Source of the DNA: Dehalococcoidia bacterium
Lineage (GTDB): Bacteria > Chloroflexota > Dehalococcoidia > UBA2979
Direction of reading: 5' to 3'
Length of the DNA: 64,000 bases
NCBI GenBank assembly: GCA_963667465.2
Contig: CAXXDN010000002.1
Location: forward strand, 800,001-864,000
How positions within the stretch are numbered: the first letter of the stretch is position 1; each line of letters begins with the position of its first letter. The notes under the pieces are model-generated. The model searched no databases, was not told the origin of the DNA, and was given only the letters and a program-made list of their open reading frames with translations. The translations under genes were made by a program, and so were the position numbers. Positions 26,999 through 42,241 of this stretch are shown here, one piece after another.

Positions 26999-29440
26999 AT
27001 GGCCCGAACGAATACCCGCCGCCCGGCTGGCCGTGGCACGCAGCGAGCGACCTCACGATCGGTCGTGAGGCACGTCCTGCGCCCGGAGATCGCCGGGACC
27101 GCCCTTGTCGTTCTGGCGGTGGCGCTACTGCCCTTCCTGCTCCCGCTGACGAGTATCGTGGCCGAGGCCCGCGACGGCCTGGTGGGCGCCCTCGGGCTGC
27201 ACGTCTTCACGCTCGTCGTGCTCACGCTGACGACCGGGCTGCTGCTCGCGCTGCGCCAGGGCGGGCGGCTGCGCGGCCGCGGGCGGCACATCGCCGGCGC
27301 GGCCCTGCTGCTGGCGTTCAGCGCCGGGCTGCTCGGGCTCTGGACACCCGACGTGATCGTCGGCGAGGTCGACCTTGGCACGAGCTCGGCCGGGGGTAGC
27401 CTCGGGCGCGAACTCGCAGGCGGCGGGCTGCTGACGGCCGCCTGGCTCGCACTGTTCCCGATCGGGTTCACGCTGCTCTGGCCGCGCACGGCCTGGCAGT
27501 TACTGCGCGGCAGCCCGCGCGCCCTCGGCCTCACCCTGGCCTGGCTCTGGCGTCACGTCGCGCGGCCCGCCGGGCACGGCGTTGCCGCGCAGGTCCGCGC
27601 CTTCCGCGCGCGCCGCCGCCGGCCCGAGCTGGCGAGCGACCCGTACGCCGACCTCCGCGCCGACCTGCCGGCCGGAACCGGCCTGCCGACGCGCCTCGAG
27701 AACCAGCCGGCCACGAACGGTGCGACCTCGGGGGCCGAGGCCGCGAGCGAAGCGGCAGCCGCGATCGAGGTCGCGGAGCCGCCGCCCCCGAAGCAGATCG
27801 AGATGGACCTCGAGCACGATGTCAGCACCTGGCGTCACTCGAGCGATGGCTGGCAACTGCCGCCGATCGAGCTGCTGGCCGCGGCGGAGCCACTCGCGCC
27901 CGAGCTGGGCGACCAGCAGCGTCGCGCCGATCTGATCGTCGAGACGCTCGCCTCCTTCGGCGTCGAGGCGCAGGTCTCGCAGATCAGCGAGGGCCCGACC
28001 GTCACCCAGTTCGGCGTCGAGCCCGGCTGGGACGTGCGCACCCGCACGGTCCAGGAACGCACGCCCGAGGGCCAGGCCGTCCTCGACGAGGAGGGCCAGC
28101 CGCGCACGAAGCAGATCGAGGTCTCGCGCACGCGCGTGCGCGTGAACCGCATCACCGCGCTGCAGAACGACCTCGCGCTCGCGCTCGCCGCCCCCGCGCT
28201 GCGCATCGAGGCGCCCGTACCCGGGCGCTCGGTCGTGGGCATCGAGGTGCCGAACGCCAGCTCTGCGGTGGTGACGCTGCGCAGCGTGCTGGAGTCGCGC
28301 GAGTTCGCGAAGGCGGCGGGCAAGTCGCCCCTGCCGATCGCGCTCGGCTCCGGCGTCTCCGGCACGCCGGCCGTCGCCGACCTCGCGCAGATGCCGCACC
28401 TGCTGATCGCGGGCGCGACGGGCTCCGGCAAGTCGGTCTGCCTCAACTCGATCATCGCCTGCCTGCTGATGAACTTCTCGCCCGAGCAGCTGCGCTTCGT
28501 GCTGATCGACCCGAAGCGCGTCGAGCTCGCGCCTTTCGCCGACGTGCCGCACCTCGCCTTCAGCGAGATCGTGATCGACATGGACAAGGTGGTCGGCACG
28601 CTGCAGGCCGTGATCCACGAGATGGAATCGCGCTACCGGCGCTTCGCGAACGTCGGCGTGCGCAACCTCGAGCGCTACAACGAGCAGGCCGGGAGCGGCC
28701 GCCTGCCCTACTGGGTCGTGGTCATCGATGAGCTGGCCGACCTGATGCTGGCCGCGCCCTACCAGGTGGAGCACCAGTTGGTGCGCCTCGCGCAGCTCGC
28801 AAGGGCGACCGGCATCCACCTCGTGGTCGCCACGCAGCGGCCCTCGGTGGACGTGGTGACCGGCCTGATCAAGGCGAACTTCCCGACGCGGATCGCCTTC
28901 GCCGTCTCATCGCAGGTGGACTCGCGCACCATCCTCGACGGCGGCGGCGCCGAAAAGCTGCTCGGCAAGGGCGACATGCTCTTCCAGCCGAAGGATCAGG
29001 GGAAGCCGACCCGGCTCCAGGGCGTCTTCGTCTCCGACGGCGAGATCGAGGACCTGACGAGCTTCTGGACCGACGGTCGTTTCGAGGACCTGCGCCCGCC
29101 CAGCTTCGATGAGCTGATCGACGAAGCCGCCGAGGAAGTCGCCGCCCTCGAGGCCGGAGGGGGCGCCGGACCCGCCTCCGCCGAGGTCGACCCGATGATC
29201 ACGAAGGCCCTCGAACTGGCGCGCGAACACGACCAGATCTCGACCTCCCTGCTGCAGCGCCGCCTGCGCATCGGCTACCCGCGCGCCGCGCGCGTCATGG
29301 ACGAGCTCGAGGAGCAGGGCGTGGTTGGCGCCTCAGAGGGCGGATCGGGCAGCCGTCCCGTGCTCCTCGACGCGGACGAGGGTGGCGCGGAGACGCCTGC
29401 CGCGCCTGTCGCGGGTGCGCCGGTGGTGGATCGGGAATAG
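26999..29440 (+). CDS. ftsK: DNA translocase FtsK
   Basis: N-terminal TM region, MPHLLIAGATGSGKS, IDELADLM, ATQRPSVDV and gamma domain LQRRLRIGYPRAAR. Confidence 0.95.
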   Translation: MARTNTRRPAGRGTQRATSRSVVRHVLRPEIAGTALVVLAVALLPFLLPLTSIVAEARDGLVGALGLHVFTLVVLTLTTGLLLALRQGGRLRGRGRHIAGAALLLAFSAGLLGLWTPDVIVGEVDLGTSSAGGSLGRELAGGGLLTAAWLALFPIGFTLLWPRTAWQLLRGSPRALGLTLAWLWRHVARPAGHGVAAQVRAFRARRRRPELASDPYADLRADLPAGTGLPTRLENQPATNGATSGAEAASEAAAAIEVAEPPPPKQIEMDLEHDVSTWRHSSDGWQLPPIELLAAAEPLAPELGDQQRRADLIVETLASFGVEAQVSQISEGPTVTQFGVEPGWDVRTRTVQERTPEGQAVLDEEGQPRTKQIEVSRTRVRVNRITALQNDLALALAAPALRIEAPVPGRSVVGIEVPNASSAVVTLRSVLESREFAKAAGKSPLPIALGSGVSGTPAVADLAQMPHLLIAGATGSGKSVCLNSIIACLLMNFSPEQLRFVLIDPKRVELAPFADVPHLAFSEIVIDMDKVVGTLQAVIHEMESRYRRFANVGVRNLERYNEQAGSGRLPYWVVVIDELADLMLAAPYQVEHQLVRLAQLARATGIHLVVATQRPSVDVVTGLIKANFPTRIAFAVSSQVDSRTILDGGGAEKLLGKGDMLFQPKDQGKPTRLQGVFVSDGEIEDLTSFWTDGRFEDLRPPSFDELIDEAAEEVAALEAGGGAGPASAEVDPMITKALELAREHDQISTSLLQRRLRIGYPRAARVMDELEEQGVVGASEGGSGSRPVLLDADEGGAETPAAPVAGAPVVDRE

Positions 29441-29443
29441 AAC

Positions 29444-31528
29444 CTACCGCCCGCGCCCCCTGCCGCCGCGGCGCCCGCCGCCGGCGTTCGCACGCTGCGG
29501 GCGCGGCGAGGGCGTGTCGAAGGCGCGCAGGCCCTCGGGGGTATCGCCGACGAGCTCGCGGCGCAGCTCGACAATCTGGTCGCGGAGCTGGGCGGCGCGC
29601 TCGAACTCCAGTTCGCGCGCGGCGGACTTCATCTGTGACTCCAGCTCCTTGATCATCCGCAGCAGCTCGTCCCGCGGCAGGTCCGTGGCGACGACGTAGG
29701 CAGGCGACTCTTCGGCGACGCGAAGGCCGTCCGTGATGTCGCGGATCTCCTTGCTGATGCCCTCGGGCTCGATGCCGTGCTGCTCGTTCCAGGCGAGCTG
29801 GATCGCGCGCCGCCGCTCCGTCTCGTCGAGGGCGTTTCGCATCGAGTCCGTCACGGTGTCGGCGTACATGATCACGCGGCCTCCGGCGTGGCGGGCCGCT
29901 CGGCCGATCGTCTGGATCAGCGATCCGCCGGAGCGCAGGAACCCCTCCTTGTCGGCGTCGAGAATGCAGACGAGCGAGACCTCGGGCAGGTCGAGGCCCT
30001 CGCGCAGCAAGTTGATGCCCACGACCACGTCGTACACGCCCTGCCGCAGATCGCGCAGGATGTCGACGCGCTCGAGGGTGTCGATCTCGGAGTGGAGGTA
30101 GTGAGCCTTCACGTCCATCTCGAGCAGATAGTCGGTCAGGTCCTCGGCCATCTTCTTGGTCAGCGTGGTCACGAGGACGCGCTCGCGACGCCCGGCCCGC
30201 GTGCGCACCTCGGCGAGCAGGTCGTCGATCTGCCCCTGCGTCTCGCGCACCTCGACGATCGGGTCAGGGAGGCCGGTCGGGCGGATTACCTGCTCGGCGA
30301 CGTGCTGCGAGCGCTCCAGTTCGTACGGCCCGGGGGTCGCCGAGACAAAGATCACCTGGTTGAGATGGTCCTCGAACTCGGCGAAGTCGAGTGGGCGGTT
30401 GTCGAGTGCCGAAGGCAGCCGGAAGCCAAAGTCGACCAGCGTCTGCTTGCGCCGGATGTCACCGAAGTACATCCCGCGGATCTGCGGCATGGCGATGTGC
30501 GACTCGTCGACGAACACCAGCCAGTCGTCCGGGAAATAGTCGAGCAGCGTCCACGGCGTGGAGCCCACCCCGCGCCCCTGGAGGTGCCTCGAGTAGTTCT
30601 CGATGCCGGAGCAGTAACCGCTCTCACGCAGCATCTCCAGGTCGTAGCGCGTGCGCTCCTCGAGCCGCGTCGCCTCGAGGATCTGGCCCGCGCTCCGCAG
30701 CGCGACGGAGCACTCGCGCAGTTCCTCCTCGATATTCTTGATGGCGAGCTCGAGGCGGTCGCTGGAGGTGACGAAGTGCTTCGCCGGGTAGATCGAGAAG
30801 CGCTCCTGCGCCGTCAGCAGCTCGCCGGAGAGCGGGTCGACGGTGCCGATGCGCTCGATCTCGTCGCCCCAGAAGTCGACACGCACGGCGACGTCCTCGT
30901 AGGCCGGGAAGATCGTGAGCGTGTCGCCGCGCACGCGGAAGGTGCCGCGCACGAGGTTCATGTCGTTGCGTGCGTACTGCATGTCCACCAGCTGGCGGAT
31001 CAAGGAGTTGCGGTTGACGTGCCGCCCGACGTGCAGCTTCGCGACGAACGATTCGTACTCGCCGGGCTCGCCGAGACCGTAGATGCAGGACACGGAGGCG
31101 ACGATTAGTACATCGCGCCGCTCGAACAGCGCGCGCGTCGCCGAGTGGCGCATCTTGTCGATCTCGTCGTTGATGTCGGCGTCCTTGGCGATGTAGGTGT
31201 CAGTGCGGGGGATGTAGGCCTCGGGCTGGTAGTAGTCGTAGTAGGAGACGAAGTACTCGACGGAGTTGCGAGGGAAGAACTCGCGGAACTCCGCCGTCAG
31301 CTGTGCGGCCAGCGTGCGGTTGGGCGCGAGCACCAGCGTCGGCCGCTGATGCTGGGCGATGATGTTGGCCATCGTGAAGGTCTTGCCGGAGCCGGTGGCC
31401 CCGAGCATGGTCTGCATCGTCAGTCCACGATCGAGGCCCTCGAGGAGTTGCTCGATCGCCTGCGGCTGGTCGCCCATCGGGCGGAACTCGCTAACCAGCT
31501 CGAACCCGGTGCTCGCTGTGGTGGTCAC
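29444..31528 (-). CDS. uvrB: Excinuclease ABC subunit B
   Basis: [25 protein letters not shown] and [14 protein letters not shown]. Start placed at a GTG 7 nt after TACAAT (ATG at 31537 is an alternative). Confidence 0.96.
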
Positions 31529-31640
31529 GCGCTCCATTGTACGCCTCGCCGGCGCCGATCCCGCCTCGCGCCGCGCCGCGCTATGCTGCCCGGCGGAACG
31601 GAACTGAAGCGCACGACGCGTGAGGCCGGGGAGGTGAACG

Positions 31641-32366
31641 ATGCGGCTCGAGGGCAAGGTCGCGATGGTCACGGGAGCGGCTTCGGGCATCGGACGGGCG
31701 ACATCGCTGACGCTGGCGCGCGAGGGCGCGGCCGTGATGTGCGCCGACGTCAACACCGCGGGCGCGCAGGCTACGGCGGACGCGATCGCCGCAGCGGGCG
31801 GGACGGCGGCCGTCGTCGCGCTGGATGTCACCGACGAGGAGGCCGTGCAGGCCGCCCTGGCCGCCACCGTCGAACAGCTCGGCGCGCTGCACATCCTGGT
31901 CAACGATGCCGGTATCAGCGGCCGTACGCACGATTACCACGACGTGATCGACGTGAACCTCAACGGCGTCTACTACTGCATGAAGCACGGCGCGGCGCTG
32001 ATCGAGCAGCACGGCGGCGGCTCGATCGTGAGCCTCTCCTCGATCATGGGGCTTGTGGGGGGCTCCGCGCCGGGCTACACCGCTTCGAAGCACGGCGTGC
32101 TCGGCCTCACTCGCAACTACGCGCTCATGTACGGCGGGCGCGGCGTGCGCGTGAACTGCGTCAACCCCGGCTACATCGAGACGCCGATGACGGAGTTCAT
32201 GCTCAGCGACGAGGCCCGGCGCGAAGACGCACTCGACCTGCACCCGATCGGCCGCCTCGGCAGGGCCGAGGACGTGGCGAACGCGATCCTCTTCCTCGCC
32301 AGCGAGGACGCCTCGTTCGTGACGGGCGTGGCGCTGCCCGTGGACGGCGGCTACACCGCACAGTAG
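31641..32366 (+). CDS. Short-chain dehydrogenase/reductase
   Basis: [13 protein letters not shown] and VDGGY. Confidence 0.92.
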
Positions 32367-32391
32367 CCGCCGCCGAGCGCCCGCTTGCGGC

Positions 32392-33174
32392 TCAGTCCTC
32401 GCCGAACCAGAAGCGGCGCATGTTCGCGCCCGCGATCGCCTCGATCGCGTCGTCCGGAACCGGCAGCTTGCCCTCGAGCAGCAGGTTGAGGTCGGCGACG
32501 TACTCATCGAGGCCCCCGGACGCCGGGTAGTTCGAGCCCCAGACGATGCGCTCCGGGCCGAACGCCTCCACGGCCTGCGCGATCACGGGGTACACCGCCG
32601 CGTGGGGGTGGGGGGCGTAGCGGCTCGGGAACGAGAGCTGGAACCAGACGCCCTCATGGCGCGCCAGCTCCCAGACCGGCTGCTGTGGCGCGAAATCGGG
32701 CGCGTCTTGCAGCCGCGGCGTCGCGAGGTGCGAGAGCATCACGCGCGTCGCCGGGTGGCGGGCGATCGCCGCGTCGATGTACGGGACCCAGTCGGCCGGC
32801 GCGTGGTGGGGCATCGCCTGGATGATGAGTCCGAGGTGCGCGGCGGCCATCAGCAGCTCCGGCCGCTCGAAGATCATCTCCGAGGTGAGTCGCACGCCCG
32901 TGAAGTCGCCCTCCCGGGCGATCTCCTCGAGTTGATCGCGGGCCCGCGGATCGCGGTGGTTGACGAGGCAGACGCCGGCGACCCTGTCCCGGTCCGCGCG
33001 GATGACCCCGGCGAGGTAGCCGTTGTCGTACTCGCCCATGTGCTGGACGATCGTCACCCGCGTCACGCCCGCCTCGCCGAGCGTGCCGCGCAGTGTCTCG
33101 TACGGGTAGTACTTGCTCAGGCCGCAGTGCGTGTAGGCGTCGTTGACCTCGAAGGGGTGGACGGGCGCAGTCAT
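32392..33174 (-). CDS. Amidohydrolase_2 family protein
   Basis: DAYTH, DNGYL, MLSHLA.P and FGPERIVWGSNYP. Confidence 0.85.
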   Translation of the reverse strand: MTAPVHPFEVNDAYTHCGLSKYYPYETLRGTLGEAGVTRVTIVQHMGEYDNGYLAGVIRADRDRVAGVCLVNHRDPRARDQLEEIAREGDFTGVRLTSEMIFERPELLMAAAHLGLIIQAMPHHAPADWVPYIDAAIARHPATRVMLSHLATPRLQDAPDFAPQQPVWELARHEGVWFQLSFPSRYAPHPHAAVYPVIAQAVEAFGPERIVWGSNYPASGGLDEYVADLNLLLEGKLPVPDDAIEAIAGANMRRFWFGED

Positions 33175-35018
33175 GAGGTTGCCTCCATCAGGAGACCTTG
33201 CGTGCGGTAGCACTCAGGATCGAGATCGTCCAGCAGTGGCGACCGCGTCCGCGGACGGCACACGATCGTGAGCGCGTTGCTTGATCGGGTGAGCGCGACG
33301 TAGAGCTGCGCGCGCTCGCTGGCGGTTGAGTCGCCTCGGGGCTCAAAGTCCAGCAGGTACACAGAGGAGAAGTCGAGCCCCTTGGCGGAGTGCACGGTGA
33401 GTACGGACACACTCGACCCATCGGGGGCTGAGCGTGAGACGACGGCTGCCTCGATCCCTTGCTCAATGAGCTGCTTCGCAGCCTGTTGGGCTCGTCGATT
33501 CCTGGAGGCCAGGACTGCGATCTGCGAGGGCGGGCGTCCGCGCTCAGTCTCCGCCCGGATCGCGTCAGCGATGAACTCCAACTCCTGCTGGGCGGTCGGA
33601 ATGTGGGCAAGCACCGGTACCGGGCCGTCACGGTCACCTGGTCGCATTTCACCAAGCTCGCGGTACATTTCTTCATCACTGCCATAGAGAGACGCTGCGA
33701 GCGCGTGGACCTGCCGCGTCGAACGATAGGGAACGCGCAGGACGCGCACGCGCGACCGGGGCGGTCGCAATTCACGCTGCGCCCATGTGAAGCCATGTGG
33801 GTAGATCGACTGCGCAGCGTCGGAAAACACCATCATTGTATTCTCCGAGCCGTGCGTCAGAGCACGTGCGAGGCGCGCCATCACAGGGCTGCAGTCCTGT
33901 GCCTCATCAACGATCACCGCGCGGTACCGCGGTGGATCCTTGTCCTCTTCCAGCAACGCGCGGGCGCGCTCAATTTGGTCGTCCCATTGATGAGGGCCGC
34001 CGGCCTCGGGCCGGATGCGCTGGTTCAGTTCCCAGATCACTTCACGTTGACGCCGCTTCAGCGGGTGCAGGCCCTGGCTGCGCGGGCGTGTGACGTCGAG
34101 GTAACCCCCGATCTCACTGAATTGATTGGGGCGAAGGACGCTGAGGATTTCGTTTGCCAGGTCATCGTCCGAGAGGTCCTCGATCTCGGCTCGCTGCTGA
34201 TCCGAAAGGGTCGGGCGGGCAATCGATACCGCAGTTCGCAGCTCGCTCCCGGAGGCATCGACGTTGATCCGCACGCCCCTGCTGTTGGCGTAGCGCGCAG
34301 CCCAACGATGGAAGCTTGTGACCTCGATCTCCTGCGCAACGGCGGGATCAGCGAGAGAGTCAATTGCCTGCCGAACAGCCTCCATGAGAACGCGGTTGTA
34401 GCAGAGATAGAGGACTCGTCCGACGCCGAGCGCCGGCTCCCCCGCGAGGTGGATTGCACGCCTGATCGCAATCGAACTCTTGCCCGTCCCCGCTCCACCC
34501 TTGACGAGGGCGAAACCGCCCCAGTTGCTTGTATCGAGCGTCACCAGCGTTGCCTGGCGCTCATCAAGAGCGGCGAAGTAGTGCGCAAAGCCACGGTCCG
34601 CCATTTCGACGAGGAGGTCAGGACGGGCCAGTGGAATCGGATCTTCGGGCGACACACGGGGTACGGCGGCTGGCGCGCCGACGCCAGCTGTGCGCATCCG
34701 CTCTCCCCGTTCGACAAGCGAGGCGATTGTCGAACGGTGCTGCGTGGCCCAATCGTATGCCTCATCGTGACCGCCGACCCAAAGAAGTACGAAGCGGTCT
34801 TCGAGGCTGGCAAGAATGAGCCTGTACTTGCGGCTTACCCGGACTGAGTCGACCCGCGCGCTACCCAGATTGTAGAGCCGCTCCCGGTTGAGGCCCGGGC
34901 TCAGCGGATCGTCCGAGAGTCGCTGCCACGCTTCTGCCGTTTCTGCAGCGAGGCGTTCTGGAAGTTGGTCGTAGCTATCCGGGAACGTAGGCGCGACGAA
35001 CGGATCCCGGTCCGGCAT
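33171..35018 (-). CDS. SF1 (UvrD/Rep-like) helicase with N-terminal RelE-like domain
   Basis: N-terminus has DPLSPGLNRERL..SVRVSRKYRLIL..LWVGGHDEAYDWA. Helicase motifs GGAGTGKS, LCYNRVL, VDEAQD, DAAQSIY, YRS, HSAKGLDF and LYVALTR. AAGGAG RBS. Confidence 0.85.
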   Translation of the reverse strand: MPDRDPFVAPTFPDSYDQLPERLAAETAEAWQRLSDDPLSPGLNRERLYNLGSARVDSVRVSRKYRLILASLEDRFVLLWVGGHDEAYDWATQHRSTIASLVERGERMRTAGVGAPAAVPRVSPEDPIPLARPDLLVEMADRGFAHYFAALDERQATLVTLDTSNWGGFALVKGGAGTGKSSIAIRRAIHLAGEPALGVGRVLYLCYNRVLMEAVRQAIDSLADPAVAQEIEVTSFHRWAARYANSRGVRINVDASGSELRTAVSIARPTLSDQQRAEIEDLSDDDLANEILSVLRPNQFSEIGGYLDVTRPRSQGLHPLKRRQREVIWELNQRIRPEAGGPHQWDDQIERARALLEEDKDPPRYRAVIVDEAQDCSPVMARLARALTHGSENTMMVFSDAAQSIYPHGFTWAQRELRPPRSRVRVLRVPYRSTRQVHALAASLYGSDEEMYRELGEMRPGDRDGPVPVLAHIPTAQQELEFIADAIRAETERGRPPSQIAVLASRNRRAQQAAKQLIEQGIEAAVVSRSAPDGSSVSVLTVHSAKGLDFSSVYLLDFEPRGDSTASERAQLYVALTRSSNALTIVCRPRTRSPLLDDLDPECYRTQGLLMEATS

Positions 35019-35055
35019 AGGTGCTCCTTGTCTTGTTGCCCGCCCGCAGTCTAGC

Positions 35056-36091
35056 TGTTCTTCCCACGAACGTTGTTTACAGGCGTGAGGCGGGGACAGC
35101 CCCGCCGATGCCGCCGTGTGGCCGGCGAGCATTGTAGCGGTAGAGCCAGCGCGGGAGCTGGTGCAACCGCTCGGCGTTGGAGCGGTAGGGGCGGGCGTAG
35201 GCCCACTCGTTCTGCAGGATCTGGATGAAGCGCTCGGCCTTCCCGTTCGTTTGCGGGCGGTAGGGCCGGGTGTGACGCAGTTCCACTCCTGCGGCGGCGG
35301 CCACGCCGCGGAAGTCGCCGGAGACGGTGTACGCCTTCGCGTTGTCGGTGAGCACGCCGCGCACGCGCACGCCGCGGCGGCCGAACGCGGCGAGCGCCTG
35401 CTTGAGGAAGGCGGCGCAGCTCGCGCCGCGCTCGTCGGGCAGCACGGCGACGTAGGCGTAGCGGCTGTGGTCGTCGACGGCGACGTGGAGGTAGTCGAGG
35501 CCGCGCGTGCGCGGGGTCGCCGCGGAGCGGCCACGGACGCGGTGTCCGCCGCCCTCGGGGATGCGGCCCAGCTTTTTCACGTCGATGTGCAGCAGGTCGC
35601 CGGGGGCAGGGTGCTCGTAGCGCAGCTTCTGCCTGCTCACGCGGTGCAGGCGGTCGAGACGGTTGAGACCGAAGCGGCGGAGCACGGCGTAGGCGGTGGA
35701 GCGGGCGATCCCGAGCGCCCAGGCGATGCGGTGCGGCCCGAACCCCTGGCTGCGGCGCACCGCGCAGATGCGGGACTCCAGCTGCGGCGAGGTGCGGCGC
35801 GGATTCGAGCGCGGAGCGGAGGTGCGGTCCTCGAGTCCGGCCGCGCCCTCCTCGTGGTAGCGGCGCCACCACTTGCCGACCGTCGCACGAGAAACCCGGA
35901 AGCGCCGCGCAACCTCCGCCTGCGACCAGCTGGCCTCGACCTCCAGAACCATCTCCAGCCGGGTGGCCGGAGTCAGACGCGCGTTAGGATGTGCCACGAG
36001 AGGCTCCTCTCCTGCTACTGGTGCGTTCTTCAGACACACACACAGCAGCAGGCGGGGCCCCTCACCTGCAACAACCTACGTGGGAACTACA
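35056..36091 (-). mobile_element. IS481-family insertion sequence, apparently complete
   Basis: TGT...ACA ends with imperfect IRs (TGTTCTTCCCACGAACGTTGTT / TGTAGTTCCCACGTAGGTTGTT). Direct repeat TCTAGC at 35050-35055 and 36092-36097. Confidence 0.95.
35077..35997 (-). CDS. IS481-family transposase
   Basis: HPNARLTP, HIDVKKLGRI, VDDHSR, LTDNA and RPQTNGKAERF (DDE). Confidence 0.95.
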   Translation of the reverse strand: MAHPNARLTPATRLEMVLEVEASWSQAEVARRFRVSRATVGKWWRRYHEEGAAGLEDRTSAPRSNPRRTSPQLESRICAVRRSQGFGPHRIAWALGIARSTAYAVLRRFGLNRLDRLHRVSRQKLRYEHPAPGDLLHIDVKKLGRIPEGGGHRVRGRSAATPRTRGLDYLHVAVDDHSRYAYVAVLPDERGASCAAFLKQALAAFGRRGVRVRGVLTDNAKAYTVSGDFRGVAAAAGVELRHTRPYRPQTNGKAERFIQILQNEWAYARPYRSNAERLHQLPRWLYRYNARRPHGGIGGAVPASRL

Positions 36092-36178
36092 TCTAGCGAA
36101 GCATGAACTGCCCGGGTGAGGGTGCGCGCCGACTGCGGGCGGTGACGGGCGGGGCTAGAGTGGGCCGCTGGAGGCGGC

Positions 36179-37501
36179 ATGGTCGCGAGGCTGTTCCCGG
36201 GCGTCTACGAGGGCTGGATCGTCGTCGGCGCCTCGACGACGATGCTCTTCATCCTCTCGGCCGCGGTCTTCTGGGGCCTCGGCCCGATCTTCAACCCGAT
36301 CCTCGACGAGTTCGGCTGGAGCCACGGCGCCACCGCGTTCGCTTTCGCCGCCCGCTCCGAGGTCAACGGGGCGGCGGCCCCGTTCGTCGGGGCGCTGATC
36401 GACCGGATCGGCTCGCGAATGATGCTGGTCGTCGGACTTGTCGTCGCATCGTGCAGTCTCTTCCTGCTCTCCTTCATGCAGAACATCGTGCACTTCTACC
36501 TGCTGATGCTCGTCATGGCGCTGGGCACCAGCACCTGCGGGGGACAGGCGACGATGGTCTCCACCGTCAGCTGGTTCGAGCGCAAGCGGGCGCGCGCCCT
36601 GGCCCTGGCGACGGCGGGCGGCACGCTTGGCGGGATCCTCGTCGTGGCCATCGCCTTCCTCGTCGAGTCGCTCGGCTGGCGAGGCGCGCTGCAAGTGATG
36701 GCGGTGGTCCTGCTCGTCGGCGGCCTCCTCGCTGGATCGAACGTGCGCACGAGGCCGCCAGGCCACCGCCAGCCGCTCGACGGCATCCCACGGGCCGGAG
36801 GTCCGGATCTTCGTGAGGGCGACGACGACGACGAGCGCTGGGGCGTGCCGCTGCGCGAGGCGCTGCGCGCGCGGGCGTTCTGGCTGCTCGCGTTCGCGCA
36901 GTTCGCGATCTTCTTCGCGATCACGGCCATCGTCGTGCTGCACGTCCCGTTCATGGAGGACGATGTCGGGATCTCGAAGACGGCGGCGGGCGTGGGCTCG
37001 GCGTTCTTCGCCGTCGCCTCGCTGGTGGGGCGAATCATCTCCGGGGGCGCCGCCGACCGCTTCGACAAGCGAGTGGTGCTGGCGCTGGTGGTCCTGGTGG
37101 CGGGCGTTGCGATGCCGCTCTTCGCGCTGGTCCAGAACCTCTGGCAGGCGAGCCTGGTGCTGATGGTCATCGCCGCCGGAGTCGGCGGCGCGAACCCGAT
37201 CCGCACGGCGCTGCTGGCGGACTACTTCGGGACGCGCTCGTTCGGCGCGATCAACGGCGTCTCGATGGCGATCGGGACGCTCGGCGCGTTCTTCGGTCCG
37301 TGGCTGCTGGGGCTGAGCGTGGACGCGACGGGCGGCTACTCGATCGGCTTCGTCTTCACCGGCGTGGTCGCGCTGATCGCGATCCCCTTCGTGCTGCGGA
37401 CGAAGGCGCCGACGGAGCTGACGGCGCGTTACCGCGGCCGCCCGGTCCGCGTCGTGCCACCCGGTCCGCCGCGCCCCCGGCCCGGCGCGCCTCGGGGTTA
37501 G
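36179..37501 (+). CDS. MFS transporter (OFA/MCT-like)
   Basis: About 12 TM segments, GALIDRIGSR, WFERKRARAL and GAADRFDKR. Confidence 0.9.
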   Translation: MVARLFPGVYEGWIVVGASTTMLFILSAAVFWGLGPIFNPILDEFGWSHGATAFAFAARSEVNGAAAPFVGALIDRIGSRMMLVVGLVVASCSLFLLSFMQNIVHFYLLMLVMALGTSTCGGQATMVSTVSWFERKRARALALATAGGTLGGILVVAIAFLVESLGWRGALQVMAVVLLVGGLLAGSNVRTRPPGHRQPLDGIPRAGGPDLREGDDDDERWGVPLREALRARAFWLLAFAQFAIFFAITAIVVLHVPFMEDDVGISKTAAGVGSAFFAVASLVGRIISGGAADRFDKRVVLALVVLVAGVAMPLFALVQNLWQASLVLMVIAAGVGGANPIRTALLADYFGTRSFGAINGVSMAIGTLGAFFGPWLLGLSVDATGGYSIGFVFTGVVALIAIPFVLRTKAPTELTARYRGRPVRVVPPGPPRPRPGAPRG

Positions 37502-38787
37502 TCGAGCCGTCGCAGCCGCGGCAGGAACGCCAGCATCGCGAGCGTCAGGACGACGAGCACGGCCGAGACGGTGCCGAACGCCCATTGCCCGCCGACCTGC
37601 TCGGCGAAGAGACCGAACAGCACGGCTCCGAAGGACATGATCCCGAACTCCGTCATGTAGAGGGACATCACGCGCCCGCGATACTCGTCGAGCGAGTACT
37701 GCTGCAGCAGCACGTTGCCCAGCGCCTGCCGCCCCGCGCTGCCGATGCCGACGAACAGCATGAAGAAGCCGCTCAGCCAGATCAGCCTCGTCGAGGCGAA
37801 CCCGATCAGCGCCACGCCGACGAACAGCGAGCTCAGCAGCAGGAGCAGCCCGCGGCGCCTCGCGGGCAACGAGGCGAGCACAAGCGATCCCCCGAGCGAT
37901 CCGACCGCGCTCACGGCGATCAGCAGCCCGAGCTCGATCGCGCCGCCGCCGAGCACTTCGGTCACGAAGCCGGGCAGCATGATCTGGTACGGCAGCGCCA
38001 GCAGCGCGCCGACCATGCCGGCGACGAGGAGCAGGGCGAGCGTGCGTTCGGCGATGACGTAGCGCACGCCCTCGACGAGGTCGGCGTACCCGCTGGTGCG
38101 TCTGGAGCGGGCCGCAGGCTCGTAGTGCAGCCGCACCTGCCCGAGCGTGACGACGGCGAACCCGTAGAGCCCGGCCATCAGGAAGTAGACCCACTCGGCG
38201 CCGATGAAGGCGATCATGAATCCGCCGGCCGCCGGGGCGGCAAGCCGCATCAGGTTCGACGCCGCGGCGCTCAGCGAGACGGCGTTCATCAGCCGCTCCA
38301 TGCCGACGACCTCCGGCAGGATCGCCTGCCTCGAAGGCATCATCAGCGCAAGCGCGATGCCGTGCGCCACGCCCGCAACCAGCAGGTGCATGAACTCAAG
38401 CAGGTCGAACAGCAGCAGCAGACCGACGATGACGGCGGTGACGGCGTTGGCGAGCTGCCCCAGTTGCAGCACCAGCTTCTTCGGCGCGCGGTCCGCGAGC
38501 ACGCCGCCGAAGACCGAGAGGATGAGCATCGGCGCGGCGCTTCCGAGAGAGATCACGCCGAGCGCGGCGAAGCTGCCCGTGAGATCGAATGCCAGGAAGC
38601 CGCGCGCCAGCATCTGCATGTTCATCGCGGCCATCTGGCCAAGCAGGGCGAGGTAGAACCAGCGGAAGTCGCGGTCGGAGAACGAGTCGAAGGTGCGGAG
38701 CTGCCGTCCGCCTCCAGATGCTCCGCCCTCCCCCGGCGGCCGCTCGACCGGGCGCTCGGCAGCGCCCTGGGTCGGGGCGGCGGTCAC
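37498..38787 (-). CDS. MFS transporter
   Basis: DRDFRWF, GGVLADRAPKK, PSRQAILPEVV and RGRVMS. Confidence 0.9.
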   Translation of the reverse strand: MTAAPTQGAAERPVERPPGEGGASGGGRQLRTFDSFSDRDFRWFYLALLGQMAAMNMQMLARGFLAFDLTGSFAALGVISLGSAAPMLILSVFGGVLADRAPKKLVLQLGQLANAVTAVIVGLLLLFDLLEFMHLLVAGVAHGIALALMMPSRQAILPEVVGMERLMNAVSLSAAASNLMRLAAPAAGGFMIAFIGAEWVYFLMAGLYGFAVVTLGQVRLHYEPAARSRRTSGYADLVEGVRYVIAERTLALLLVAGMVGALLALPYQIMLPGFVTEVLGGGAIELGLLIAVSAVGSLGGSLVLASLPARRRGLLLLLSSLFVGVALIGFASTRLIWLSGFFMLFVGIGSAGRQALGNVLLQQYSLDEYRGRVMSLYMTEFGIMSFGAVLFGLFAEQVGGQWAFGTVSAVLVVLTLAMLAFLPRLRRLD

Positions 38788-38933
38788 GAAGCGAGACCGC
38801 TCGCGAGGGCGGCGGAGACTGACGGTCTGCGGGAGCGTGCGATCATCTCCGCAGTCTAGGCGATGATGCCCGGGGTTGCCCCGGCCGTGTCGTACGGTGT
38901 AACGCAAGTGGGTCAGGAACGACGTGGGTAGCC

Positions 38934-38961
38934 TTGACGGGCTGTTCGCTATTTGCGAACA
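38934..38961 (+). promoter_or_regulatory. TA-operon promoter (TTGACG) with TGTTCGC-N5-GCGAACA operator palindrome
   Basis: Perfect 7-bp inverted repeat at 38943-38961, between TTGACG and the AGGAGG RBS. Confidence 0.6.
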
Positions 38962-38982
38962 TCAGGAGGAATCAGGCCGGGC

Positions 38983-39240
38983 ATGACAATCGAGTGGGGG
39001 AGCAAAGCGATTCGGGACATGCGCCGCCTGCCTGCACGGGAGCGGGAGCGCATCATCGCCAGGATCGAGCAGTACGCCGCGAACCCGGCGTCACTCGCGA
39101 GGCAGGTGGTCGCGTTGACCGGGGGTCCGTACAGGCGGCTGCGAGTCGGCGACTATCGCGTGATCTTCAATGTCGAGCAGGGCAACCCCGCGGTCATGGC
39201 CGTGTTGAGGGTCCGGCACAGGAGAGAGGCATATGACTGA
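38983..39240 (+). CDS. RelE/ParE-family toxin (HigB-like position)
   Basis: IEWGSKAIRDM..L, YRRLRVGDYRVIF and RVRHRREAY. Confidence 0.9.
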   Translation: MTIEWGSKAIRDMRRLPARERERIIARIEQYAANPASLARQVVALTGGPYRRLRVGDYRVIFNVEQGNPAVMAVLRVRHRREAYD

Positions 39241-39625
39241 CAAGGACACAGTCACTCTGCCCCGTACGGAGTACGAGGCCCTGATCGAGCGCAACAGCGA
39301 GCTTGAGGACACGCTTGCCGCCATCGAGGCGGACGACGGCAACCGCGTGCCGCACGAGGTGGCGCTCGCGATGATTCGCGGCGAGAGCCCGCTCCTCGCG
39401 TTCCGCAGCCACTTCGGACTGACGCTGCGCCAGCTCGCCGCGCGGACCGGGATCGCCGCCAGCTACCTGTCTGAGATCGAGCGCGGGCACAAGCCGGGCT
39501 CCACCTCCGCCCTGGCCCGCATCGCCGAGGCGTTCGGCTCCACGATCGACGCCCTGCTCAGTGATCGGGAGTTGCCCGGAGGCGAGCTGCTGGTAGCGGA
39601 GGACGAGCCCGAATACCCGCGATGA
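39233..39625 (+). CDS. Xre/HTH_3 antitoxin (HigA-like)
   Basis: VTLPRTEYEAL and GLTLRQLAARTGIAASYLSEIERG; overlaps the toxin stop. Confidence 0.88.
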   Translation: MTDKDTVTLPRTEYEALIERNSELEDTLAAIEADDGNRVPHEVALAMIRGESPLLAFRSHFGLTLRQLAARTGIAASYLSEIERGHKPGSTSALARIAEAFGSTIDALLSDRELPGGELLVAEDEPEYPR

Positions 39626-39689
39626 TCGGCGCGGTTGCCGCGCGGGAGGCCCCCCGCTAGGGTTCGCAACGCGAGACGGGAGGACCGCG

Positions 39690-40478
39690 ATGCCGATGCT
39701 CGATGTGGACGGGGCCAGGCTGCACTACCACGAGCAGGGAGCCGGCGAGACGATCGTCCTCACCGCCGCCTACAACACCCCCTCGAAGTTCTGGGGCCCG
39801 CTGGCCCCGACGCTCGCCAAGAACTTCCGCGTCGTGACCTACGACGTGCGTGGTTTCGGCGACACGGAGATCGAGACCGAGAGCGCCAACGTCGATATCG
39901 CCGCAGACGACCTGCACGCGCTGATTCAGCACGTCAGCGACGGCCCCGTGTTGTCGCTCGGGCATGCCTTCGGGGGCGGGGTCGCCGCCAACCACGTCGT
40001 GCGCAACCCGGACGCCGTGCGCGGGCTGATCCTCGTCAACGCCGGCGGCATGTTTGCCGGCGATCCTGCGGCCTCCGCCAACATGTACTCGCTCTCCACC
40101 AAGCGCGGCCTCGATGCCGATGGCTTCGCGGAGCTCTTCGTGGAGACCTACTGCGGCGCGGGGTTCGGCGAGACCGAGGAGCAGCGCGCGCTCCTCGACG
40201 GGATGTTCGAGGACCGCAGCCCGCGCGAGAAGGTGATGATGGCGCTGTCGATCCTCGGCTCGTCGAACGCCGACAAGTACTGGGCGCAGTGGTCGCATCC
40301 GACGCTGCTGATCTACGGCACCGCCGACCGCGTTGCGGTGCCACTCAACGGCTTCGACCTCGCGAGGGCGCTGCCCAACTCCGAGCTGCACTGGCTCCGC
40401 GGCGCCGGACACTACAGCCCCTGGGAGCGCCCCGATCGCATCGCCGAGCTGGTTGGCGAGTTCGCGGCGAGCCTCTAG
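39690..40478 (+). CDS. Alpha/beta-hydrolase fold protein with nucleophile Ser replaced by Ala
   Basis: YDVRGFG, GHAFGG elbow, GTAD and GAGH...E.P. Confidence 0.85.
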   Translation: MPMLDVDGARLHYHEQGAGETIVLTAAYNTPSKFWGPLAPTLAKNFRVVTYDVRGFGDTEIETESANVDIAADDLHALIQHVSDGPVLSLGHAFGGGVAANHVVRNPDAVRGLILVNAGGMFAGDPAASANMYSLSTKRGLDADGFAELFVETYCGAGFGETEEQRALLDGMFEDRSPREKVMMALSILGSSNADKYWAQWSHPTLLIYGTADRVAVPLNGFDLARALPNSELHWLRGAGHYSPWERPDRIAELVGEFAASL

Positions 40479-40511
40479 CCAGGATCCGAGGGCGCTGCGA
40501 GGGCACGGCGT

Positions 40512-41288
40512 GTGACGCAACGCCTCGACGCCAACGTCGCCGTCGTCACCGGCGCCGCCTCCGGCGCCGGACGGGCGATGGCGCAGCGCTGTGCTTCCGA
40601 AGGCGCCGCCGTGCTCTGCGCCGACCTCAACGAGGACGGCCTCGCCGGGACGGTCGCGAGCATCGAGGCCGCCGGCGGACGCGCCGCCGCACGGCGCGTC
40701 GACGTCTCCCGCGAGTCCGATGTCGAGGCGATGCTGCAGGAGGCCGTCGAGCGGTTCGGGCGGCTCGATCTGCTGTTGAATAACGCGGCCGTCGGGGGCG
40801 GCGTCGGCGACTGGTCGCGGACAATTGCGGTCAACCTCGAGGGCGTCTACTACGGGCTGCAACACGGTGCGGCGCTGCTTGCCGAGCAGGGCGGCGGCGC
40901 GATCGTCAGCACGGCCTCGGTCGGCGCGCTGGTCGCGCTGCGCCACCACCGGCTGCCGCGCGACGGCGGCACGCTGCCCTCGGGTCCGCTCGGCTACGTC
41001 GCCGCCAAGGCTGGAGTCGTGGGCCTGACGAGGCAGTTCGCCGTCGTCTACGGGCGGCGCGGCGTGCGCGTCAACGCGATCGCCCCCGGCGGCATCGACA
41101 CGCCGATGCTGCGTGGCGGCAGCGACTTCAGCGAGGGCGACCCGCACCCCGCCGACGCGATCCACCCGCTCGGCCGCATCGCGCGGCCCTCGGAGATCGC
41201 GGCTGCGGCGGTCTTCCTCGCAAGCGACGAGGCGGCGTTCATTACCGGCGTCGTGCTGCCCGTCGACGGCGGCTACACCGCGATGTAG
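40512..41288 (+). CDS. Short-chain dehydrogenase/reductase
   Basis: TGAASGAG, NNAA, YVAAK and VDGGY. Confidence 0.9.
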   Translation: MTQRLDANVAVVTGAASGAGRAMAQRCASEGAAVLCADLNEDGLAGTVASIEAAGGRAAARRVDVSRESDVEAMLQEAVERFGRLDLLLNNAAVGGGVGDWSRTIAVNLEGVYYGLQHGAALLAEQGGGAIVSTASVGALVALRHHRLPRDGGTLPSGPLGYVAAKAGVVGLTRQFAVVYGRRGVRVNAIAPGGIDTPMLRGGSDFSEGDPHPADAIHPLGRIARPSEIAAAAVFLASDEAAFITGVVLPVDGGYTAM

Positions 41289-41356
41289 CCGCGCCGCAAC
41301 CACCGCGCGCCTGGACTCAGACCGACACGCTTGAGACGACCGAGGGGCGGGCAGCG

Positions 41357-42241
41357 ATGCAGGACTTCCATGGCAGGGTCGCCGTCGTCACCGGCGCGGC
41401 GAGCGGCATCGGGCGCGGGCTCGCGCAACGCTTCGCCGAGGAAGGCATGCGCGTCCTGCTCGCCGACGTCGAGGCGGACGCCCTCGATGTGGCTGTCGAG
41501 GAGCTGCGGGCGGCGGGGCACGAGGTGCGCGGCGAGCAGGTGGACGTCTCCAGCCAGGACTCGGTCGCTGCGCTCGCGGAGGCGGCGTTCGCCGCCTGGG
41601 GCGGGGTGCACGTGGTGTGCAACAACGCCGGCGTCGCGGCGGTCAACGACTGGGGCTCGCTGCACCCGGAGGGCGGCGTGCCGATGTGGGAGCTGACGCT
41701 CGATGACTGGCGCTGGACCTACGGCGTGAACTTCTGGGGCGTGCTCCACGGCATCCGCGCCTTCGCGCCGCTGCTGATCGAGCAGGGCGAGCCGGCGCAC
41801 ATCGTCAACACCGGCTCCGTGCAGAGCTTCCAGGGCAACACCAGCCTCGTCGCCTACAGCTCGACGAAGTTCGCCGTCGGGCGCATCACCGAGGCGTTGC
41901 AGATGCAGCTGCGGGAGCTCGGGTCGCCGGTGCGCGCGCACCTGCTCTGCCCCGGCGGCGTCGCGACCCGCAGCTACCTCGCGGAGCGCAACCGGCCGCC
42001 CGCGTTGCAAAACCCCGACCCGGCAGCGGGCGACCCGGAGCGCGCGGCCGCCTTCGAGCGCGCGCGCGAGGAGACCGGCGAGAGCATGGGCCGCAACATG
42101 CCGCCCTCGGGCGTCGCGGCGGCGGTGATCGAGGGACTGCGTGCGGAGCGCTTCTACATCTTCTCGCACGGGACCGACTTCGACGCCCGGATTCGCGCAC
42201 GCATGGAGCGGATCATCGCGCGCAAGGAGCCGCAGCCCTGA
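41357..42241 (+). CDS. Short-chain dehydrogenase/reductase
   Basis: [13 protein letters not shown] and YSSTK. Confidence 0.92.
   Translation: MQDFHGRVAVVTGAASGIGRGLAQRFAEEGMRVLLADVEADALDVAVEELRAAGHEVRGEQVDVSSQDSVAALAEAAFAAWGGVHVVCNNAGVAAVNDWGSLHPEGGVPMWELTLDDWRWTYGVNFWGVLHGIRAFAPLLIEQGEPAHIVNTGSVQSFQGNTSLVAYSSTKFAVGRITEALQMQLRELGSPVRAHLLCPGGVATRSYLAERNRPPALQNPDPAAGDPERAAAFERAREETGESMGRNMPPSGVAAAVIEGLRAERFYIFSHGTDFDARIRARMERIIARKEPQP

Follow-up and report, generated by a model that had tools for sequence, protein, structure and literature searches.

A partner-less, shortened relative of the ARMADA protein ArmD, with a predicted RelE fold joined to a UvrD-type helicase, in a Dehalococcoidia genome

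A gene of a Dehalococcoidia bacterium that appears to join a toxin-like domain to a helicase raises the question of whether it represents an undescribed defence system, a form of a known one, or something other than defence. It lies in a stretch of 64,000 nucleotides (contig CAXXDN010000002.1 of assembly GCA_963667465.2, positions 800,001 to 864,000 of the forward strand), hereafter called the window, from whose first letter the coordinates are counted unless another contig or locus is named. The labels of the runs in which the gene occurs describe the genome, G000 in our set, as sponge-associated. The initial annotation, made from the letters alone, had proposed a RelE-like nuclease fused to a helicase of superfamily 1 (SF1), acting as a single gene without a separate antitoxin, and had put it forward as an undescribed system. 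Judged by sequence comparison, the gene is instead a partner-less, shortened variant of the recently described protein ArmD. The gene and its parts are listed below, with the evidence used for each, including open reading frames (ORFs), AlphaFold2 (AF2) models with their predicted local distance difference test scores (pLDDT) and hidden Markov models (HMMs); protein lengths are in amino acids (aa).

33171..35018, minus strand: whole gene of the 615-aa RelE-fold and SF1A helicase protein, stop codon included (ORF and translation)
35024..35029, minus strand: ribosome-binding site AAGGAG, 5 nt ahead of the ATG (read in the sequence)
34734..35018, minus strand: predicted RelE/YoeB-fold (BECR) domain, residues 1-95 (AF2 model, Foldseek, HMM, alignments)
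34569..34733, minus strand: linker, residues 96-150 (pLDDT; gap in BLASTP against E. coli ArmD)
33174..34568, minus strand: UvrD/PcrA-type SF1A helicase core, residues 151-615 (Pfam, PDB sequence matches, Foldseek)
34476..34496, minus strand: Walker A motif GAGTGKS, residues 175-181, with K180 (family alignment A1; E. coli ArmD alignment)
33894..33908, minus strand: Walker B motif (motif II) DEAQD, residues 371-375 (family alignment A1; E. coli ArmD alignment)

The gene is read from an ATG at 35018-35016 to a TGA at 33173-33171; a longer, GTG-started frame reaching 35534 is an other-frame read-through of the end of the transposase gene of an adjacent insertion sequence (IS). The stretches PTFPDSYDQL, PLSPGLNRERL, SVRVSRKYRLI and LWVGGHDEAY, from which a RelE-like domain had been suspected, are present in the translation. 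An AF2 model of residues 1-125, built on an alignment of 59 sequences, had a mean pLDDT of 86.1 and a helix-helix-four-strand-helix topology (helices at residues 12-17, 21-36 and 84-93, strands at 46-51, 54-60, 65-71 and 76-83). When this model was compared with the PDB by Foldseek, all 11 matches at E ≤ 0.001 were chains of RelE, YoeB, YafQ, Cami1 or an H. pylori toxin. The best was an archaeal RelE (1wmi_A, E 7e-5), Cami1 ranked second, third and fifth, and M. tuberculosis RelE3 was also listed. The YoeB, RelE and YafQ toxins have the same fold, with target-normalised TM-scores of 0.72-0.77 and root mean square deviations of 2.2-2.7 Å to 1wmi_A, 2a6r_C and 3oei. The predicted structure places the domain in the BECR-fold RelE/ParE superfamily, and at the level of the model the presence of a RelE/YoeB fold at the N-terminus is confirmed.

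Among 8000 candidates scored, 598 homologues were found at E ≤ 0.001. The close set, of 590-670 aa and 31-88% identical to the window protein over nearly the full length, comprises at least 75 full-length members and is called here the solo clade; all members with a source name come from Chloroflexota or Thermomicrobiales. In an alignment of 34 sequences containing solo members, ArmD-type proteins and one stand-alone toxin, R60, R66 and H84 were invariant (34/34), that is, in both the solo and the ArmD-type proteins. Positions E46, S58, D85, A87 and W90 were nearly invariant in alignments A1-A3, Y88 was conserved too, and the invariant columns of the N-domain in family alignment A1 include L34, G42, R60, R66, L79, H84 and A87. 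The catalytic residues of YoeB are Glu46, Arg65, His83 and Tyr84. A profile alignment with S. aureus YoeB (7v6w_F), which is weak (E 0.033) and ends before H84, sets E46, R60 and R66 on FEKLE and SRRI..HRVVY.

A free-standing relative of the domain is encoded in the same genome. This 89-aa protein (G000:C1:36545-36781) scores 37.4 bits for the Pfam family PF24732, is 43% identical to residues 7-87 of the window protein and shares with its N-domain the motifs SxR..YR and HDE.Y. An upstream gene of 84 aa without a Pfam family adjoins, by its stop codon, the start of the toxin gene, as an antitoxin gene would, and the two (G000:C1:36545-37071; locus L082 1477-2003, minus strand) probably make up a type II toxin-antitoxin pair from the RelE subfamily to which the N-domain belongs. 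Whereas the stand-alone toxin has this 84-aa partner, the window protein has a 465-aa motor and no antitoxin gene. No similarity was found between the 84-aa protein and any part of the window protein (E 1.2), and no cognate antitoxin gene adjoins the helicase gene, which has an IS upstream, an amidohydrolase gene downstream and no neighbour conserved over the eight loci compared below. The gene thus lacks the adjacent antitoxin of a type II toxin-antitoxin module, and the suggestion that it works without a separate antitoxin agrees with what lies beside it.

The assignment of the remaining part to the SF1A helicases, with all motifs recognisable, was also borne out. UvrD-helicase (PF00580, E 9.8e-17, 61.9 bits), UvrD_C (PF13361, E 4.4e-16, 59.7 bits) and AAA_19 all score above their Pfam cut-offs, and the helicase matches together cover residues 168-590. 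The motifs read GAGTGKS (175-181), VDEAQD (370-375), YRST (431-434), TVHSAKGLDF (541-550) and YVALTRS (573-579); in family alignment A1 the Walker A residues (G175, G177, G179, K180), those of motif II (D371, E372, Q374, D375) and those of motifs III and V-VI are all invariant. A search of the PDB by sequence gave HelD, PcrA and UvrD for the motor. The full-length AF2 model (pLDDT 85.2, predicted TM-score 0.74) matched PcrA (1pjr, E 5.3e-19) and also UvrD (2is4, 4c30) in Foldseek; residues 110-124, in the linker, are predicted to be disordered (pLDDT < 50). The two Pfam domains, the residues of motifs Q, I, Ia and II-VI and Foldseek together place the motor among the UvrD/PcrA/Rep-like SF1A helicases. 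HelD, an RNA-polymerase recycling motor, was the best NCBIfam match of the C-terminal half (E 1.9e-20) and its best PDB sequence match (6wvk_H, 1.7e-14). Identity with HelD or helicase IV was rejected, the scores being far below the cut-offs (72 bits against 419 for HelD).

A RelE-like domain joined to a UvrD-like helicase is also the architecture of ArmD of ARMADA type II, described from the armABCD genes of E. coli NCTC 12900 / EDL933 (10.1101/2025.09.15.676423; PMC13463889). In the accessible text of the first source, deleting any one of the four arm genes abolishes protection, the ArmD substitution K266A abolishes it as well and D454N impairs it partly (10.1101/2025.09.15.676423); in enterohaemorrhagic E. 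coli, deletion of armD removes defence (mBio, PMC13463889). The arm-type cluster of E. coli NCTC10444, in which genes for a helicase, a methylase and another helicase of 2113 aa precede that for a UvrD-like protein of 704 aa, served as comparator, and K266 and D454 of the 704-aa protein coincide with the published ArmD numbering. BLASTP against this ArmD-position protein aligned 89 aa of the N-domain with 36% identity (E 5e-15) and 452 aa of the motor with 26% (E 5e-26), and the Walker A motif and motif II of the window protein align with the motifs of K266 and D454, respectively. An HMM derived from 36 ArmD-type N-termini alone, each with an ArmC-like gene upstream, matched the N-domain of the window protein (E 3.8e-21), all 75 solo-clade N-termini searched and the stand-alone PF24732 toxin (E 1.8e-10). 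Homology to ArmD, taken as a RelE-like head with a GajB/UvrD-like helicase, is therefore found in both domains. The claim of an undescribed system has to be withdrawn on these grounds, whereas the supposed link of the relatives to defence is upheld by the characterised ones, which work in anti-phage defence.

The window protein differs from ArmD in length and in company. ArmD has ~700-730 aa against 615 aa, the solo clade being ~100 aa shorter, and a ~140-aa middle region (residues ~103-257 unmatched) stands where the window protein has a ~55-aa linker. ArmD is the product of the last gene of armA-armB-armC-armD, after those for a BrxHII-like helicase, a PglX-like methylase and a YprA-like helicase, whereas the window gene has no such partners. 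An ArmC-like gene, defined as a co-directional upstream ORF of at least 1500 aa, was found at none of the 8 solo loci, compared with 31 of the 40 ArmD-type loci that had at least 6.5 kb of upstream DNA. The MZB domain of YprA (PF09369) gave no match in the window's genome, which is 93.6% complete. Distant relatives of 24-32% identity and ~700-730 aa occur in many phyla and align from residue ~8, the N-domain included, and several are labelled 'superfamily I helicase / RelE' by JGI. In their loci a ~2100-aa protein with DEAD, Helicase_C and MZB (DUF1998) domains is encoded directly upstream of the helicase, preceded by a ~1050-1200-aa Eco57I/N6_Mtase protein. This order of methylase, MZB helicase and RelE helicase corresponds to ArmB-ArmC-ArmD of ARMADA type II.

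In a FastTree phylogeny of the helicase cores (87 rows, midpoint root; 45 rows without the Walker A pattern, most NERD forms among them, dropped and ArmD-type sequences thinned to 28), the solo clade was monophyletic with an SH-like support of 100 and fell outside the ArmD-type clade. Its sister (support 97) consists of helicases encoded in ARMADA-like clusters of Ktedonobacteria, Chloroflexia and cyanobacteria, which also carry a RelE-superfamily head. The sister heads belong to other RelE subfamilies (PF05016 ParE_toxin, YoeB, Gp49, YafQ) and reach no better than E 3e-5 with the ArmD-N HMM. At 4 of the sister loci examined, the gene stands between an MmeI/Eco57I-type methylase gene and that of a YprA helicase, which is split into parts of ~1280 aa and ~620 aa (MZB). 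As both neighbouring clades are mostly linked to ARMADA, the clade of the window protein is the one that stands alone.

Four sister loci (L021, L060, L041 and L146; for example L060 1633-19008) have the order SNF2 helicase, methylase, RelE-type UvrD helicase and split YprA, and in L021 an AAA_5 (McrB-like) gene comes next after the cluster. The sister clade may be the ARMADA of 'reversed order' to which 10.1101/2025.09.15.676423 refers. Six other loci (L011, L031, L033, L040, L055 and L107) contain ArmD-type genes for ~700-790 aa without an ArmC-like ORF in 8-10 kb of available upstream DNA, and solitary or rearranged full-length ArmD genes may thus exist outside the window's clade as well.

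No description of solitary ArmD-like genes was found in the literature searched; the supplements of the ARMADA and Tiamat preprints lay outside that search and might list some. In the accessible text of the latter, a RelE-helicase is mentioned in Tiamat type I-K neighbourhoods (10.64898/2026.09.30.754977). A 2025 survey of multidomain RelE/ParE proteins by Gerdes left out fusions without an identifiable antitoxin, and the words helicase and UvrD are absent from its available text (PMC11980606).

The distribution of the gene is that of a mobile, accessory element. Homologues are rare and patchy among whole genomes: at E ≤ 1e-50 they were present in 6 of the 401 genomes sampled from the class, G000 counted, and true orthologues in 3 of the 19 genomes of the genus. 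Eight solo-clade loci were compared (the window, L001, L002 and those of G015, G006, G025, G201 and G216), and they represent six unrelated contexts with varied neighbours, such as oxidoreductases, pyruvate:ferredoxin oxidoreductase, PBP2/RodA, MetE and EEP-family genes. Neighbours common to different genomes were seen only within two pairs from related genomes, L001/L002 and L090/L091. The one exception, an MFS_3 protein of L173 with 46% identity to that of the window, we read as a chance match because such transporters have many paralogues. No solo-clade member occurred among the metagenome matches listed, which comprised at least 79 loci, all with relatives of 24-36% identity. A plasmid search matched 72 records, in the helicase only and at < 60% identity, none covering ≥ 80% of the query. 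The helicase gene is an accessory, horizontally acquired single-gene cassette found at unrelated chromosomal sites without a conserved partner, in line with the proposal of a single gene.

Compared with the 76%-identical orthologue of G015, the ratio of nonsynonymous to synonymous substitution rates (dN/dS) was 0.113 over the whole gene and 0.107 in the RelE domain as well as in the helicase, with 0.175 in the linker; these values are rough, dS being ~1.4. Purifying selection maintains both halves of the gene, and constrains the two domains equally. Such values, ~0.11 in both domains, argue against a selfish addiction cassette of the fused toxin-antitoxin kind, or an inert ArmD remnant left after the loss of ArmA, ArmB and ArmC, explanations that we consider very improbable. 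A lone gene with a toxin fold, no partner and a patchy distribution would suit either, and fused toxin-antitoxin genes of the RelE superfamily do exist (Gerdes 2025, PMC11980606). The solo clade is nevertheless monophyletic and conserved in length among its full-length members, which shows no decay; no region resembles a cognate-type antitoxin; and pure addiction would not require the helicase motifs to be kept.

The explanation that we favour, with somewhat better than even confidence, is that of a solitary, self-contained conflict protein related to ArmD, whose motor targets or gates the RNase-fold head. The protein would serve, acting alone, in anti-phage or anti-mobile-element conflict. 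Its motor would load on single-stranded nucleic acid and track along it, in the 3'->5' direction on single-stranded DNA by analogy with UvrD and PcrA, and in doing so would position or unlock the N-terminal RNase-fold domain. The head might then cut RNA: mRNA on ribosomes, in the manner of YoeB and RelE, or RNA that the motor meets along its track. In lieu of an antitoxin, the body of the helicase would keep the RelE domain inactive in cis.

A gated RelE domain has a precedent in Cami1 (CARF-RelE, an ancillary nuclease of type III CRISPR; PDB 8phb, 8phj), in which RelE is controlled by a fused sensor without an antitoxin. In Cami1, however, the CARF sensor binds cA4 and RelE is C-terminal, whereas the window protein has an ATP motor and an N-terminal RelE domain, and the two proteins are unrelated beyond the RelE fold. 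Each protein of the solo clade could be an autonomous one-protein immune device, with the motor as both sensor and cis-antitoxin of a ribosome-dependent mRNase and a nucleic-acid structure of the invader as the trigger that releases translation shut-off. We put this forward only tentatively. If true, such a device would parallel Cami1 in a minimal form, gated by a motor and in need of neither partner genes nor a small-molecule signal, and the ArmD module of ARMADA could work without ArmA, ArmB and ArmC.

Several points weigh against the favoured explanation. ARMADA is reported to act directly and non-abortively (10.1101/2025.09.15.676423), which fits badly with a classical RelE growth-arrest toxin and lends no support to the helicase sensor switching on an RNase that the initial annotation had proposed. 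In the accessible text of the ARMADA papers, the only ArmD residues mutated are those of Walker A and Walker B (10.1101/2025.09.15.676423; PMC13463889), and in E. coli ArmD needs ArmA, ArmB and ArmC (same sources), so that autonomy of the shorter orphan form is an assumption. The relative placement of the two domains is uncertain in the model because the linker is disordered, and inhibition in cis is thus purely inferred. PF24732 (ParE_like) matches residues 29-85 below threshold (E 0.057; 13.9 bits against a cut-off of 24.4), and among 34 clade members 6 touch this family and 5 a HigB-like one at E ≤ 1. Homology to RelE is supported despite this score by the identity to the stand-alone toxin, a genuine PF24732 member, and by the ArmD-N HMM match. 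The neighbourhood comparison comprises only the 8 loci in 6 independent contexts, and the neighbourhoods are mostly metabolic or housekeeping. Finally, 82 proteins were scanned with PADLOC, of which 81 were neighbours from the 8 loci and one was an ORF of a related genome, G009, described below. PDC-S11 in L172 was the only specific candidate for defence, and all further matches were generic (HTH, FtsK, UvrB, DinG, methyltransferase). The enrichment in defence islands that the initial annotation had suggested looking for did not emerge.

This lack of a defence-island signal among mostly housekeeping and metabolic neighbours, together with the HelD matches of the C-terminal half, would suit a motor outside defence that clears transcription-translation or replication conflicts in the manner of HelD or UvrD, with the RelE fold as an inert ribosome- or RNA-binding adaptor. 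We regard this as improbable. The HelD score is far below the model cut-off, the gene is confined to the few genomes of the class and genus given above, its codon signature is foreign, and the nearest relative has another gene at the same place (see below). The basic and histidine residues that RelE-type active sites typically contain are invariant, and the characterised homologue ArmD works in phage defence (10.1101/2025.09.15.676423; PMC13463889).

The best PADLOC match of the window protein is NERD-UvrD (C3a187), whose motor is related (residues 150-590, E 1.3e-30, profile positions 196-546) and whose effector is likewise N-terminal. Its head, however, is a NERD nuclease of the PD-(D/E)xK type, whereas the window protein has no NERD match. 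Tiamat type I-G likewise has 'NERD-helicase' partners. Among 79 relatives taken from genomes, 14 carry NERD and 18 a RelE-type Pfam family at the N-terminus, and the presence of NERD or RelE heads on one motor family indicates that the effector head is exchangeable. GajB of Gabija is a further likeness: its models match parts of the motor only (up to E 6.7e-20), GajB structures are weak by sequence (E 0.19), and no match to GajA was found among the proteins of the PADLOC scan, so that the Gabija pairing is not seen.

A nuclease in the same N-terminal position of related helicases and the E-value of C3a187 over the motor favour a direct helicase-nuclease aimed at the nucleic acid of the invader, in which the RelE head would be no ribosome-dependent toxin but a cis-acting RNase or nucleic-acid-binding head on the tracked substrate (R-loops, nascent transcripts, RNA primers) and protection would be direct and non-abortive. 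The lack of an antitoxin beside the gene and of antitoxin similarity within the protein agrees with it, and the non-abortive action reported for ARMADA (10.1101/2025.09.15.676423) fits a head acting on the tracked substrate better than cleavage of mRNA on ribosomes. On the other side, the nearest structural matches are all ribosome-dependent mRNases (RelE, YoeB, YafQ, Cami1), and the stand-alone paralogue with the same motif behind an antitoxin-like gene argues that the subfamily is toxic when free. We consider the direct helicase-nuclease possible, if rather unlikely.

The value of a solitary conflict protein related to ArmD, the favoured explanation, lies partly in its simplicity. ArmD is essential for ARMADA, and a shorter, partner-less natural form under selection is a simpler object for studying the RelE head, since it bears on whether the RelE fold is an active RNase, whether the motor gates it and whether the module acts alone. 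Should it be inactive alone, this would equally show the dependence of ArmD on its partners. ArmD-like genes circulate as single-gene cassettes in Chloroflexota, and they would be overlooked by defence-annotation tools that look for the four-gene cluster.

In one solo locus, L172 (G201:C1 248000-267999), two Exo_endo_phos (EEP) genes flank the solo helicase gene, one of them 37 bp upstream and co-directional, and the PDC-S11/DUF4268 candidate defence gene and a TacA-type antitoxin gene lie nearby.

L172 6438-7463, 9305-10027, 11916-12740 and 13671-14030: genes noted in this locus

An inactivated EEP domain has been ascribed to ArmC of ARMADA II (10.1101/2025.09.15.676423), and the EEP genes of L172 may therefore not be there by chance.

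In the window itself, the gene is surrounded by genes for FtsK, UvrB, a short-chain dehydrogenase/reductase (SDR), Amidohydro_2, an IS481-family element, two MFS transporters and a ParE_toxin/HTH_3 pair. The following features bear on its insertion.

32392-33174: Amidohydro_2 gene (Pfam E 9e-31), with an ATGA overlap with the helicase stop
33190..36132, no strand: window-specific segment, helicase cassette and IS (blastn of window 28001-42000 against L089 of G009)
35051..36096, minus strand: IS481-family insertion sequence (Pfam rve, rve_3, LZ_Tnp_IS481), transposase ORF ~35077-35997
38953-39240 and 39233-39625: ParE_toxin and HTH_3 genes of the HigBA-type pair (Pfam)
G000:C2 761190-762237, 746840-747885 and 867290-868342: further IS481 copies

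The weaker GC skew that had been noted was found again: the G+C content at third codon positions is 0.714 in the helicase gene against 0.92-0.95 in the FtsK, UvrB, SDR, amidohydrolase and MFS genes, a deficit that points to recent import. The genome G009, of the same genus, aligns collinearly with two blocks of the window, 29444-33189 and 36133-42000, the nucleotide identity being ~91%. In place of the helicase gene and the IS it has 592 bp with an unrelated 165-aa ORF on the opposite strand. The collinear block reaches 19 bp into the 3' end of the helicase gene, so that the last codons and the ATGA overlap are resident sequence upstream of the amidohydrolase gene. The overlap with this gene thus exists as had been described; it is a junction artefact of the insertion and no sign of shared function, and coupling was rejected because G009 keeps the amidohydrolase gene with its upstream ~19 bp and has no helicase. 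The HigBA pair is likewise present ~4 kb away, as had been stated, but a link with the helicase was rejected because the pair lies within the block conserved with G009.

The slot of the helicase behaves as a small variable hotspot. The ORF that occupies it in G009 (L089 8001-8498, minus strand; G009:C1 ~38000-38497) had no Pfam match at E ≤ 0.001 and no PADLOC match; its stretch D-A-E-N-F-I-K-P-I-I-D-A-L presumably resembles RusA-type resolvases.

The IS481-family element, correctly placed immediately upstream by the initial annotation, has 27-nt inverted repeats at 35051-35077 and 36070-36096, and its ends read CTAG. It lies 32 bp upstream of the helicase ATG in the same direction, and could silence the gene, as the idea of an addiction cassette or inert remnant would have it; an IS-free allele from another sample speaks against this. 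Contigs of run X8 carry this allele, ~96% identical, which crosses a single empty CTAG site, whereas runs from two other studies have the helicase-IS junction of the window. The IS insertion is thus later, strain-specific and outside the helicase module, and the IS-free allele indicates that the element was recently active. In the genome, 4 full copies of 99-100% identity are found on one replicon within ~120 kb. A composite transposon was rejected, as only one copy flanks the gene and the others are 32-88 kb away. The co-directional element may drive or disturb expression of the helicase gene, read-through from the transposase gene being possible; no RNA run was among those listed for the gene, and a promoter scan of 32300-36300 gave 0 sigma-70-like sites, a result of little weight at 70% GC.

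Two minor observations concern the same region. A single 56-nt contig of X8 (depth 5) joins 33717 to 36092 with 6 extra letters. Such a junction would delete the 5' two-thirds of the helicase gene together with the IS site. With flanks of only 20-30 nt, the contig may have arisen in assembly or belong to a different organism. The G009 orthologue of the MFS gene at 36179-37501 matches in three pieces and contains ~1.19 kb of extra DNA (L089 6031-7219, at window 36864-36867); from this alignment, the gene was probably disrupted in G009 by another insertion.

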